Part shown: positions 24,908 through 28,294 of the stretch, piece by piece
How positions within the stretch are numbered: the stretch's first letter is position 1
Layout: every line of letters begins with the position of its first letter
DNA from: Dehalococcoidia bacterium
GTDB lineage: Bacteria; Chloroflexota; Dehalococcoidia; Plut-88900
Length of the DNA stretch: 64,000 nucleotides
NCBI GenBank assembly: GCA_965207225.1
Contig: CBDBLV010000005.1
Span: forward strand, 288,001 to 352,000
Direction of reading: 5' to 3'
Made by a program: the position numbers and the translations under genes
The notes under the pieces: model-generated
What the model was told of the DNA's origin: nothing
What the model saw: only the letters and a program-made list of their open reading frames with translations
Databases searched by the model: none

Positions 24908-26005
24908 ATGACTCGACGGTATAATCATACTAACGGTACTCCGATGAATTCACTACACGAATTATTCGAATCGACTTTAGAGGAAATGCTGTCAGCAAAT
25001 GACGCATTCCTTGATCCAACTGATCTACAGGTTGCGGTTACCGAAATGATTCCCGAGTTAGCAGAAGAGACTGCTGATGCGATGTTGGGAAGGATCAAAA
25101 AGAGCTACAAGGCGACATTGAAGGCCAACCGACGGGAACAAGCGAGGTTCGAGAATAGGCATATCGCGCTTTGGAAAGAACCTCTTGACCTATTGGAGCT
25201 CTTCATTGCGGTCTCTAGAGAAGCCGGTGAAGATTGCAACCGCAGGCTCCGAAATAGCAACCCTATCAATAGCGGAGCTACGGTAGAAGCTCTCACCAGA
25301 CTTCATGCAAAAGCTTGCCAGACATCCTCTGCAATACTCATTCTTCTGCGATTTGGATATGCGGACGATGCTAACGCCAGATGGCGTTCATTACATGAGA
25401 TTGCCGTTGTCGGGCACTTCCTAAGGCAGGGTGGCGAGGAATTAGCTCAACGTTATCTGCTGCACGATGCAATTCAAAGATACAGAATCGCGTGCGCTCT
25501 GCGCGACTATGCAGACCGGACAAATGAAGTGCCGCTGCCCGAATCGGATTTCGAAGGGCTAAAGGCGGAACACGACGAACTGATAGCCCGTTTTGGTAAG
25601 CAATTTGGAAAGGATTACGGCTGGGCTGAATCCGTTTTGAAGAAAAAAGATCCTAAGTTGTCGGACATCGAATTATTCGTCAAGTCAGACCATTGGCGTC
25701 CCTACTACAGATTGGCGAGTGGCAATGTTCATCCTAATGCACACGGCATCTATTTTCGGCTTGGGCTTAGGAAAGAGTCTGACAACATTCTGCTAGTAGG
25801 GCCAAGCAATTTCGGTTTGGCGGATCCCGGGCACTCCACTGCGGTCTCACTCCTGAACATAACTATCGCCTTGCTCATGGTGGACCCAACCCTCGATGAT
25901 TTTGTCCACTCATCAATTGTCGAACGTCTGGCCGATGAGGTCGGCGAATCGTTTCTTCAAGTCCATCGTAAGATTGAACTACATCCAGATCCCGCGAACG
26001 CTTAG
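24908..26005 (+). CDS. DUF5677 / HEPN-like protein
   Basis: GYADDANARWRSLHE and YRLASGNVH (Rx4-6H-like); AT-richer. Confidence 0.75.
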   Translation: MTRRYNHTNGTPMNSLHELFESTLEEMLSANDAFLDPTDLQVAVTEMIPELAEETADAMLGRIKKSYKATLKANRREQARFENRHIALWKEPLDLLELFIAVSREAGEDCNRRLRNSNPINSGATVEALTRLHAKACQTSSAILILLRFGYADDANARWRSLHEIAVVGHFLRQGGEELAQRYLLHDAIQRYRIACALRDYADRTNEVPLPESDFEGLKAEHDELIARFGKQFGKDYGWAESVLKKKDPKLSDIELFVKSDHWRPYYRLASGNVHPNAHGIYFRLGLRKESDNILLVGPSNFGLADPGHSTAVSLLNITIALLMVDPTLDDFVHSSIVERLADEVGESFLQVHRKIELHPDPANA

Positions 26006-26179
26006 TAGGCTATGCAGCTACTAGCATATTGCTCTTTCATGCCGCCCCCCTCCCCCCCCCGACCTCAATATCTCAACCCCACGACCAAACCAGAGCCACC
26101 CCCCTTGCCCCCGGGTATATGCTATCAGCGACCGGATCCAATGGTCCTTCTCAAGACACAACCTGAAGGAGGTCTGAAC

Positions 26180-26860
26180 ATGGGCACAATTGCCGTCAAT
26201 CGGTTGGCGGGCCTGTCCCTCATATTTGGTCCGTTAATCGCTTTCGTATTCTTCCTGGTGGAACCGGGTGGACTGATCATCGACAGCGCCGACGTCTCGG
26301 ACGCTGCCGGCACCATAGACGCCAAGAGTGGCAACGCCGTACTGACCAACATAACCAACATGGGGATAATCCTTGGCATCGCCCTGATCCTGTCGGGGCT
26401 CTATGCGCTGATGAGGAACGTCACCTTGAAGGGCAACGGCAAGGGGTTGGTCCAGATGGGCTTCTTCATCCTCCTAGTCGGGCTGACCGGGTGGATCCTG
26501 TCCGCCGGTGTGGACTTCATCCTCGCCGACGCCCAGACCGCTGCCCAGGTTACGGAAGGCATCCCCGTCTTGAACGTCGGCTTTGCCATCTTCTACGCCG
26601 GTGGAATCGCCGTGGGCTTTGGCGGTTTCATCTTCGCCTTGGGCCTCTCCACGAGAGACGATTTCAACCGGATAATCTCCCTCCTGGCTTCCCTCGTTAG
26701 CCTGGCGGTAATGGTCTTCTTCATGATTGCCATACTCAGCAACGACGCCCATGACACCTTCATCACCTTGGCTCGGAGCTTCTACGTGCTGCTCGTAATC
26801 TGGTATGGCTATCTTGGCCTCGGCCTCACCAAACGACCCGACCCCGACCTCTGGCAATAG
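26180..26860 (+). CDS. Multi-pass membrane hypothetical protein
   Basis: About 6 TM segments; AAGGAGG SD. Confidence 0.7.
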   Translation: MGTIAVNRLAGLSLIFGPLIAFVFFLVEPGGLIIDSADVSDAAGTIDAKSGNAVLTNITNMGIILGIALILSGLYALMRNVTLKGNGKGLVQMGFFILLVGLTGWILSAGVDFILADAQTAAQVTEGIPVLNVGFAIFYAGGIAVGFGGFIFALGLSTRDDFNRIISLLASLVSLAVMVFFMIAILSNDAHDTFITLARSFYVLLVIWYGYLGLGLTKRPDPDLWQ

Positions 26861-26889: not shown

Positions 26890-27152
26890 CAGTGCTGAAC
26901 TAGAGGCCCACGTGGGTGCAGCGCACCCACGTGGGCCTCTGCTCTTCTCTCCCCCTCTCCCTTAATGGGACCCTTATACAACCCTCTCCAAGGTGTCGGG
27001 GGGAGGTGTCCAATCCCCTCTCCCATCGAGGGAGAGGGGGAGGGTGATTCGAATGCCAAGAGACCAGTCATGCAAAGCCCTCTTAGTGGCCCTGAGAGCC
27101 TGCCCCGAGTCCCTCGAGGGGGAGAGGGGGATAAAGGGGGTGAGGGTTCCCC
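26890..27152 (+). repeat. Variable-hairpin repeat (copy D) plus CCCTCTCCC/GGGAGAGGG REP cluster
   Basis: 18-bp perfect stem 26902-26940; further REP units to 27152. Confidence 0.8.
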
Positions 27153-27197
27153 TGGGGGGTTGGGGGGTATTCCCCCCAAAACCCGTGCCAAAAGCCC

Positions 27198-27250
27198 TTG
27201 ACTTCTATTACACCCGTGCTAAACTGTTTCGCAGTTCGAACTAATATTCA
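27198..27250 (+). promoter_or_regulatory. Sigma70-type promoter with LexA-like box
   Basis: TTGACT-16-TAAACT with extended TG; CGAAC-TAAT-ATTCA at 27237-27250. Confidence 0.5.
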
Positions 27251-27454
27251 GTGATCTAAGGAGGAACCAAGAACCCAGGGAAGCCCCGAGACCCGCCCCC
27301 GAGGACTCAACGCCCTAGCCCATCCCAATACCTCTCCCCTCTCTTGTAGGGGCGACCGGCCAATCGCCCCCTCGCGAGACGGGCAGGTTGCGGCACAAGC
27401 GAAAAGCGCCATCTCCTCACCCCACCGGGTCCCGTGCCCCTTCCCTGGTTTCCA

Positions 27455-27821
27455 GGCGATGGAGGGTCCATCGACTCTATGCGGCATCAGGCCTCTCTAT
27501 AACGACGCCCCTTACCCGGGCGTATACGCCTCGCCGACTTTACCCTCGTCGAGGAATTCCGCGAGTCTTCTGACTCGTTATGCAGGGCTTTAGCGCCCTT
27601 ATGCGGCTCCATCCGCCCACGGCGGCTTCGAGTCGAATGCTGTCCCGCTCAGCGGTCGAGCGCTGATACGGAGAACAGAAGTCCCCGCGCAGAGACGCCC
27701 TCGACAACGGCAAGTCTCCCAAGGCATGCGTGAAGGGAAAGGCAGGACAGCCGCCGATGCCACAAGCGTCGGCGTAGGTGCCAAAGAGATCCTGCGTGAG
27801 AGTCCCGGACCTTCCATCGCC
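27455..27821 (+). ncRNA. Candidate large structured ncRNA of unknown class
   Basis: 15-bp closing stem plus about 10 further helices; mismatches mostly G-U on + strand; no credible ORF. Confidence 0.65.
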
Positions 27822-27894
27822 GACCCAAAACTCAACAGCCAGAATGCAAACCCAGACCCCACAACCGAACACCCCCATCTCCTCCCTTCCCCCC

Positions 27895-28035
27895 CAGTAC
27901 CAAACTAGAGGCAAGCGCCTGCGCCATGGTGCAGGCGCTTGCCTCTGTTTTTTCTTCCCCCTCTTCCTTAAGGGCCCTAAGAGCCTGCCCCGAGTCCCTC
28001 GAGGGGGAGAGGGGGATCAAGGGGGTGAGGGTTCT
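27895..28035 (+). repeat. Variable-hairpin composite repeat (copy E) with nested 24-nt insert
   Basis: Stem 27907-27946; tail interrupted by GAGCCTGCCCCGAGTCCCTCGAGG. Confidence 0.85.
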
Positions 28036-28196
28036 TCTGTGGGGCGAGGGGTATCCCCTCCCCGGTTTGGAATGCGGGGTGATGGTTCCCTCCCCGTCCC
28101 TTAAACAATCAAAGTCGTGCCTGAAAACGCAAAACAATCAAACACCGGCTCCTCCCCCTCGCCCCCCGCGCCACGCGAAATCCCCGGAAATCCCTC

Positions 28197-28248
28197 TAGG
28201 CGTCGTTCAATCAAAACAGCTGCGAGTTCAATCAACCTTCAATCAATC
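28197..28248 (+). repeat. Short TTCAATC array upstream of glnS
   Basis: Units at 28206, 28227, 28238; leader matches 10307 copy. Confidence 0.75.
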
Positions 28249-28294
28249 CCCCACCCGACTATAATGTGTCGGCATCAAATCGCCCGACACCACC

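Follow-up and report, generated by a model that had tools for sequence, protein, structure and literature searches.

The segment between positions 27455 and 27821, which a first-pass annotation had singled out as a candidate non-coding RNA upstream of glnS, proved to be the inner domain of one copy of a dispersed unit. Module searches, followed by a strict motif definition, identified 43 units of one build in the genome assembly (4.03 Mb; 92.3% complete, 8.33% contamination), which, at roughly 750 nt each, make up an estimated share of close to 0.8% of the genome. These units are a new genus-restricted family of promoter-bearing structured RNA cassettes.

The segment had been taken for an undescribed large structured RNA, and in so far as it is non-coding and structured, matches no Rfam family and shows covariation above controls, this description holds. 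It is not, however, a single ~367-nt RNA tied to glnS. Conservation between copies spans the DNA from about 27172, i.e. 5' of the promoter, to the terminator at 27906-27953, beyond the ~367 nt originally delimited, and in place of the single-copy status that had been implied there are ~43 paralogous units with several different cores.

Architecture, fold and strand of the unit

The features of the copy upstream of glnS are collected in Table 1, with positions given for the window, i.e. the whole 64-kb stretch of DNA that was analysed.

Table 1. Features of the repeated unit upstream of glnS
Feature	Position	Strand	Description
5' edge of the repeated unit	27172-27197	+	C-run, A-tract, then about 16 nt just 5' of the -35 box
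Sigma-70-type promoter	27198-27225	+	TTGACT, 16 nt, TAAACT, with TG preceding; predicted start near 27232
Leader domain	27232-27454	+	nested rod with optional hairpin modules at the apex
Shine-Dalgarno-like motif	27258-27268	+	AAGGAGGAACC; no start codon behind it
Leader outer helix	27275-27283 with 27440-27448	+	CCAGGGAAG with CTTCCCTGG
Core domain, type I	27455-27821	+	inner domain of one copy of the dispersed unit; many internal hairpins
Closing stem of the core	27455-27469 with 27807-27821	+	extended by 27473-27478 with 27799-27804
Trailer	27822-27905	+	84 nt, unstructured, C-rich (A.33, C.49, G.08, T.10)
Conserved trailer motif	27857-27871	+	CCCCACAACCGAACA
Intrinsic terminator	27906-27953	+	19-pair hairpin (27906-27947), then six T's on the + strand

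BLAST searches of the same genome revealed five more full copies of 27455-27821 (87-89% identity), four copies sharing only its 3' half, and many short matches confined to the stem arms. In an alignment, the six full copies remain similar well past the closing stem, from the promoter through the terminator. Among copies with the same promoter type, similarity starts about 25-30 nt 5' of the -35 box, and the DNA beyond this edge is composed of other repeat modules or of unique sequence.

The near-consensus promoter is the sole promoter-like site between 26800 and 28350. Its general form (TTGACN, 16-17 nt, TAnnnT) is found in 38 of 39 units, the hexamers being kept as the spacers vary: 26 units have TTGACA, 17 nt and TATCAT or TATATT, and 12 have TTGAC followed by T, A or C, 16 nt and a TAAACT-like box. 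The leader motif lies behind all 40 genome matches to the three promoter types, and the promoter therefore belongs to the unit. The Shine-Dalgarno-like motif lies about 27-34 nt 3' of the -10 box across the units, and no start codon follows it. For the leader of the glnS copy the predicted fold has an energy of -76.7 kcal/mol (z -2.68), which was equalled by 1 of 200 shuffles, and the same nested fold is predicted for the leaders of other units, whose length (70-313 nt) varies with the optional apex hairpin modules. In three units the outer helix of the leader reads CAGGGGAA/TTCCCCTG, i.e. it carries two compensated changes.

The leader is followed by the closing stem in 37 of 38 leader matches, and no leader-trailer junction devoid of a core was found in the genome. 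The first ten pairs of this stem are invariant in all units, and its next part varies by core type with pairing retained. The cores themselves are 198-560 nt long and represent several exchangeable types: type I (six copies), a second type sharing its 3' half, a 309-nt type with about 15 copies, and others. Strong folding is common to all of these types (median z -5.7; 39 cores, 12 shuffles each).

The trailer, about 50-85 nt long across the units, folds in the glnS copy at -0.3 kcal/mol, which is not better than shuffles, and its conserved motif is preceded by the 3' stem arm in 26 of 32 genome matches. The terminator hairpin behind it belongs to a repeated terminator module with 74 matches genome-wide, whose motif lies no more than 220 nt from the stem in 22 of the 43 units, the glnS copy included. 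The predicted transcript of this copy thus extends over about 27232-27953 (~720 nt).

The end pairing described in the first-pass annotation was confirmed: the 15-nt arms at 27455-27469 and 27807-27821 are complementary, with a single G-T, and close the minimum-free-energy fold. The GACTCT/AGAGTC extension of this stem (27473-27478 with 27799-27804) is likewise present in that fold, as are most, though not all, of the local hairpins listed there. The fold has an energy of -174 kcal/mol (z -6.38), which none of 100 dinucleotide shuffles reached (mean -136.2). The reverse complement gives a strong fold too (z -4.82).

The Rfam 15 covariance models yielded no match at or above gathering score in the 64-kb window, and none inside 27455-27821 even at a permissive E<=10. 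None of the 4227 Rfam families matches this unit or 20 other units, the latter giving only hairpin-like chance matches far under gathering scores, and ARAGORN found neither a tRNA nor a tmRNA in the sequence. The absence of a known-class identity, as originally claimed, is borne out by these searches. The complementarity of the arms, the z score of -6.38 against shuffles and the lack of a match to known RNAs together indicate that the feature originally described is real and beyond chance.

Covariation was assessed in an alignment of 40 type-I and related cores from nine genomes, for which RNAalifold derived a consensus structure of 109 pairs, with 94.6% of cells paired. Changes on both sides were seen in 21 of the 109 pairs; shuffles gave 13.6 +/- 2.1, with none of 500 reaching this count, and slid-partner controls gave 8-14. 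Covariation of the core helices is therefore above controls, although modest, and its support for selection on structure is moderate, since the aligned copies are kin and the counts overstate the number of independent events.

Two of the helices proposed earlier are not shared by the family. The long-range GCTGTCC/GGACAGC domain exists only in the own fold of the 27455-27821 copy and would be mismatched in most of the 40 aligned relatives. Its place is taken by a local helix (A2 columns 241-246 with 276-281) that covaries, pairing being preserved as C-G, U-G or U-A. The ATGCGG/CTGCGT helix is an alternative pairing peculiar to the glnS-upstream copy, because 17 nt holding the 3' strand of a conserved hairpin are absent from this copy and present in all 39 other aligned cores. 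Judging by this private deletion, the copy may be a decaying member of the family. We also noted a candidate kissing loop between GTCGAG (27655-27660) and CTCGAC (27700-27705), both loops of which are near-invariant, with two variant copies that lack compensation.

The G-U pairs, which had been regarded as a signature fixing the + strand, turned out not to be decisive, because the reverse complement folds well into a structure of its own with 16 G-U pairs, as against 11 on the + strand. RNAalifold energies are -81.8 (+) and -76.4 (-), and the + strand structure contains 300 G-U cells versus 110 A-C cells, the structure itself having been derived on the + strand. Our assignment of the + strand is based on the promoter, on the T-run behind the terminator hairpin and on the flanks, which are rich in C and poor in G; pairing played no part in it. 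A protein-coding reading was rejected: no frame is consistently open in the 40 copies, the indels are not multiples of three, and the variable columns show no 3-base periodicity (94/93/86 by position modulo 3).

Contigs assembled from three RNA runs (two studies), 85-99% alike, cover positions 27258-27845, with a depth of 10-53 over most of the core. The contigs derive from relatives and show that kin of the unit occur in RNA libraries, which can contain DNA as well. The depth over glnS was 0-7. Cover was zero at 27160-27257 (the promoter side), 27846-27992 and 28042-28090, and the uncovered part is not evidence. Breaks in the assembly where repeats begin or end may account for the contig ends near 27826-27845, and therefore no transcript ends or processing sites are drawn from them.

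Dispersal among genes and genomes

In the copy under study, glnS (encoding GlnRS) lies on the same strand, 473 nt downstream of 27455-27821, with the terminator and other repeat modules standing between the core and the gene. A co-oriented coding-like gene starts 86-782 nt after the stem in 36 of the 43 units, and about four units face a convergent gene. The upstream neighbour points away in 22 and the same way in 17 of the 39 units scored, so that co-orientation is automatic in the divergent spacers. Most of the downstream genes seem to have their own promoter-like site 3' of the trailer, and in several units the trailer reaches within 60-90 nt of this site.

A Pfam search of 30 proteins encoded downstream of units showed them to be mutually unrelated. 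They include proteins with DNA or RNA functions (UvrA, PNPase, NusA, GyrB, RecA, LeuRS, MnmA), proteins of cofactor and central metabolism (RibF, FolD, MoaA, a fructose bisphosphatase), envelope and stress proteins (Lgt, a KatG-like peroxidase) and other enzymes (amidohydrolases, a CoA-transferase, a luciferase-like monooxygenase, PrpD). Type I cores also precede the genes for PNPase, a thiolase-like protein, a Rieske protein and a protein of 258 aa. An IS481-like transposase gene lies behind one unit, which is not a general feature. Of the two genes upstream of the glnS spacer, one (24908-26005) encodes a DUF5677 protein and the other (26012-26860) a protein of 282 aa that matches nothing in Pfam.

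We surveyed the orthologous loci upstream of glnS, recA, nusA and leuS in five relatives. A unit was found at 13 of the 20 loci (glnS 4/5, recA 2/5, nusA 3/5, leuS 4/5), including all eight loci of the two nearest relatives, and the core type at the same gene often differs between species. The units are therefore old residents with core turnover, a pattern that would be most simply explained by recombination through the conserved flanks. The region upstream of recA measures about 1070 nt in this genome and about 135 nt in relative G005, the one empty site compared. Other small repeats obscure its junctions, at which no target duplication can be seen.

Within the genus, units occur in all eight other genomes, and none was found in three other genera of the family. 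Sampling of 29 other families of the class gave one weak match (E 6e-4). In an exact-pattern scan of species-representative genomes, matches were found in records titled 'MAG: Dehalococcoidia bacterium'. A wider taxonomic spread was considered and rejected: among the matches listed, the 21 in records titled otherwise are without exception devoid of the leader, and in no case do they combine a partner arm with the trailer motif, from which we conclude that they are due to chance. A pattern search of viral contigs gave no match, and about 6 of 108 metagenome stretches hold real units. Several metagenomes holding the element are labelled sponge metagenome (shares 0.21-0.33), which is a habitat lead only. 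The titles and abstract openings of the literature searched, including work on sponges, SAR202 and Chloroflexota, contain no description of such an element.

Candidate roles and relation to known elements

With moderate confidence, we propose that 27455-27821 forms the core of a stand-alone, structured non-coding RNA of ~720 nt, made by one member of a genus-specific family of paralogous cassettes. The promoter at 27198-27225 would start this RNA near 27232, and transcription would end at the terminator (27906-27953), before glnS, giving a transcript composed of a 220-nt folded leader, the 367-nt core, an 84-nt C-rich unstructured trailer and a strong terminator. The invariant closing stem, together with leader and trailer, would constitute a processing or stabilising frame, similar to the rRNA stems cut by RNase III, that releases or protects a stable core RNA, and the Shine-Dalgarno-like motif may shield the 5' end. 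The genome contains both rho and the gene for RNase III, and loading of Rho on the C-rich trailer is conceivable. The core would act generically (e.g. as a protein-binding scaffold or decoy), with no sensing specific to the neighbouring gene, and copies would multiply and exchange their cores at the DNA level, through duplication and through recombination via the conserved flanks.

Several observations count against a stand-alone RNA. A cis role fits at least as well as a role in trans, given that 36 of the 43 units are directed towards a gene behind them and that the terminator is missing from about half. Pairing alone does not set the strand, and the modest covariation reflects few independent events. 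Moreover, restriction to one genus and repeat-like dispersal have been taken as signs of parasitic repeats in pneumococci by Croucher et al. (PMC3049150).

A broader proposal can be put forward only tentatively, namely that the units represent a new class of bacterial RNA genes, in which a standard chassis carries at least eight interchangeable structured cores in about 43 copies. Such units would be maintained genus-wide, stationed before housekeeping genes, exchange their cores by recombination and act as abundant stable RNAs with a genome-wide role. The chassis would comprise the promoter, the folded leader with its 5' protective motif, the invariant processing stem and the C-rich trailer. 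The genome-wide role might be that of protein scaffolds or decoys, of transcription-coupled control of the genes behind, or of signals to the host.

If the units are functional RNA genes, they would rank with the largest bacterial families of long, structured non-coding RNA paralogues, and would have an undescribed modular frame-plus-cargo design, in an uncultivated lineage known only from genomes. The conserved frame would then be a natural standardised cassette for RNA expression and processing, and the many core types would offer structural studies a wealth of new RNA folds. If they are selfish, they would be an unusual repeat that brings a strong promoter, and often a terminator, upstream of recA, gyrB, nusA, pnp, leuS and glnS, and effects on the expression of the essential genes behind them would be likely. 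Either way, annotators should treat these spacers as not empty.

A somewhat unlikely alternative is that the unit is a cis-acting upstream cassette, placed before genes to act on them. It could do so as the real promoter together with an extended structured 5' leader, which would have a stabilising or insulating effect on the mRNA, or as a strongly transcribed upstream unit that modulates the promoter of the gene via read-through, occlusion or supercoiling. The co-oriented gene in 36 of 43 units, with only about four convergent ones, agrees with such a placement, although co-orientation is automatic in divergent spacers and the spacing to the gene is not fixed (86-782 nt). About half of the units are devoid of the terminator module, but its motif stands behind the 22 others, and a cis role fits the 27455-27821 copy poorly, since this copy ends in a 19-pair hairpin with a T-run. 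In several units no more than 60-90 nt separate the end of the trailer from a promoter-like site belonging to the gene, yet the apparent presence of such a site past the trailer in most downstream genes speaks against this alternative. The persistence of units before glnS, recA, nusA and leuS in relatives (13 of 20 loci), and the ordinary promoter found at the corresponding place before recA in the relative that lacks a unit, are in favour of this alternative. The lack of a common function among the downstream genes, the unstructured trailer and the lack of an evident antiterminator alternative are not.

It is unlikely that the units are selfish interspersed repeats, similar to BOX or Correia elements and devoid of host function, whose inverted arms and hairpins serve their spread or are by-products and whose transcription is incidental (this reading is not exclusive of transcription). 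Their confinement to one genus (8/8 genomes, as opposed to 0/3 other genera of the family), the abundance of other small repeat modules beside and inside them, the presence/absence variation between species at recA, nusA, glnS and leuS, and the private deletion in the 27455-27821 copy are all consistent with a selfish nature, and the paired conserved ends around a variable middle recall BOX of pneumococci (PMC3049150). However, the arms do not form the ends of the repeat, being flanked on their outer side by a leader and a trailer that are conserved and non-palindromic, and no leader joined directly to a trailer was detected (stem after 37 of 38 leader matches). Furthermore, the promoter hexamers are kept in 38 of 39 units as the spacers drift, internal helices carry compensated changes, and occupied loci are common to three species (8/8 comparisons with the two nearest relatives).

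Signs of a transposition machinery were sought as well. No target duplication was seen at the blurred junctions of the one empty site compared (recA), a search for TnpB in the genome gave no match, and none of the four reverse-transcriptase genes of the genome is adjacent to a unit. A link of the units to retroelements or TnpB was therefore rejected. A mobile-element RNA, one of the identities suggested in the first-pass annotation, is possible for 27455-27821, with no transposase, target duplication or reverse transcriptase linked to the units.

Finally, a single regulatory RNA or ribozyme dedicated to glnS (a riboswitch, a T-box-like leader or a self-cleaving RNA) is highly improbable: the element is strongly structured and lies 473 nt upstream of glnS on the same strand, but it is multi-copy, type I cores precede unrelated genes, other species carry other cores or none before glnS, and a terminator and other modules intervene. 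The lack of Rfam matches extends to the T-box, riboswitch and self-cleaving ribozyme families in Rfam, and nothing in the analysis speaks for the ribozyme, or for an intron. Riboswitches and attenuators were also rejected for the family as a whole, because unrelated genes stand behind the same core types, a given gene has different cores in different species, an unstructured trailer separates core and terminator, and the terminator is a generic repeated module.

The stand-alone RNA that we favour has a close parallel of layout in rRNA operons, which are composed of a strong promoter, a leader, a long processing stem around a structured RNA, and a trailer, the stem being cut by RNase III. The 16S gene of this genome has such a stem, and the RNase III gene is present. 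There is no sequence relation between the rRNA leader and the units except for a 12-nt identity with the trailer motif of other units, and cleavage of the units by RNase III would be an analogy. The identical 12-mer, ACAACTGAATAG, lies in the 16S rRNA leader (about 510690, at the start of the 16S processing stem) and coincides exactly with the trailer motif of many units, with a chance of identity estimated at roughly 6 in 10,000. It could be a common protein or nuclease site. A link of the units to the rRNA operon was rejected, as the 16S gene has an unrelated promoter and leader of its own.

Large structured bacterial non-coding RNAs such as OLE, GOLLD, ROOL, HEARO and raiA are represented in Rfam; their function is unknown, some are linked to mobile DNA, and these classes have few copies per genome. 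The units resemble them in their length of several hundred nt and their many helices. However, each of those families has one conserved architecture, whereas the units combine a common frame with interchangeable cores in about 43 copies.

BOX elements have the modular build boxA-boxB-boxC, in which conserved end modules can pair around a variable middle, and are far smaller than the units described here. The units fit a loose BOX-like description (pairable conserved ends, a variable middle, many intergenic copies and a narrow taxon), which is a likeness of build and not homology. Unlike BOX, which is not known to have a promoter or terminator of its own, they are 0.6-0.9 kb cassettes reaching from promoter to trailer with a separate folded leader, and they carry at least eight unrelated or distantly related cores; the likeness is drawn from descriptions, not from sequence. 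In pneumococci, BOX, RUP and SPRITE are interspersed intergenic repeats (Croucher et al. 2011, PMC3049150). They are confined to one species group, have extensive RNA structure, occur in transcripts and are thought to affect neighbouring genes (PMC3049150).

The Correia repeat enclosed elements of Neisseria have inverted-repeat arms that form a long RNA stem and, as reported in PMC2649163, can generate promoters, can be bound or cut by RNase III and in this way affect adjacent genes. Stem-forming inverted arms and a location upstream of genes are common to both. However, the inverted repeats of Correia elements are the ends of the element, whereas the arms of the units lie inside a larger conserved unit. 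In addition, the promoter of the unit stands 230 nt 5' of the stem and points into the element, whose interior is a large multi-hairpin domain. Membership among elements of the MITE or Correia type was rejected, since the inverted repeats are not the termini of the unit: a leader (~220 nt) and a trailer (~50-85 nt) lie outside the arms in all copies, and the edges of the unit, which lie 5' of the promoter and 3' of the trailer, do not form an inverted repeat.

Repeat modules in the surrounding spacers

A 967-nt query around 27455-27821 gave 291 BLAST matches in the genome, which shows that the spacer is a mosaic of repeat families. The terminator hairpins behind the upstream gene (26901-26941) and behind the unit (27906-27947) belong to one repeated family, i.e. 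the module with 74 matches, and terminators in this genome seem to be dispersed as a repeat module. A ~60-nt G-rich repeat with an internal palindrome (27089-27150 and 27974-28035), with about a hundred copies in the genome, is usually located 3' of the terminator module. This high-copy repeat reached a DNA contig depth of about 1004 in run X1, and at 27993-28041 it left an RNA trace of 1.8 in one run.

Small hairpin repeats (e.g. a ~22-nt GC-rich hairpin) recur in the leaders of units and in the spacers behind them (27336-27365 in the window), and another small repeat family, which begins with GTCATTCC and ends with GGAATCC, is present in the leaders or spacers of many units. Their occurrence within leaders and spacers suggests nested insertions of miniature repeats.

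A further module, with several tandem copies of TTCAATCAA at its end, spaced at ~10-11 nt, is present at 28198-28262 and also upstream of recA both in this genome and in relative G005. It stands directly 5' of many genes (glnS, recA and others), often just before a -10-like box, and the phased 9-mers look like putative iterated sites for a DNA-binding protein. In G005, the region upstream of recA (about 1365-1475) has a plain promoter (TTGACA-17-TATACT) where this genome has a unit. The ~80 nt between this promoter and the TTCAATCAA module include a hairpin and T-run resembling a terminator, and the region may yield a short upstream transcript. Finally, a 44-nt piece of another repeat module (28099-28142) was found in RNA-library contigs of two runs at a depth of 24-27, with unrelated sequence on both sides, and may be part of another abundant RNA in relatives.
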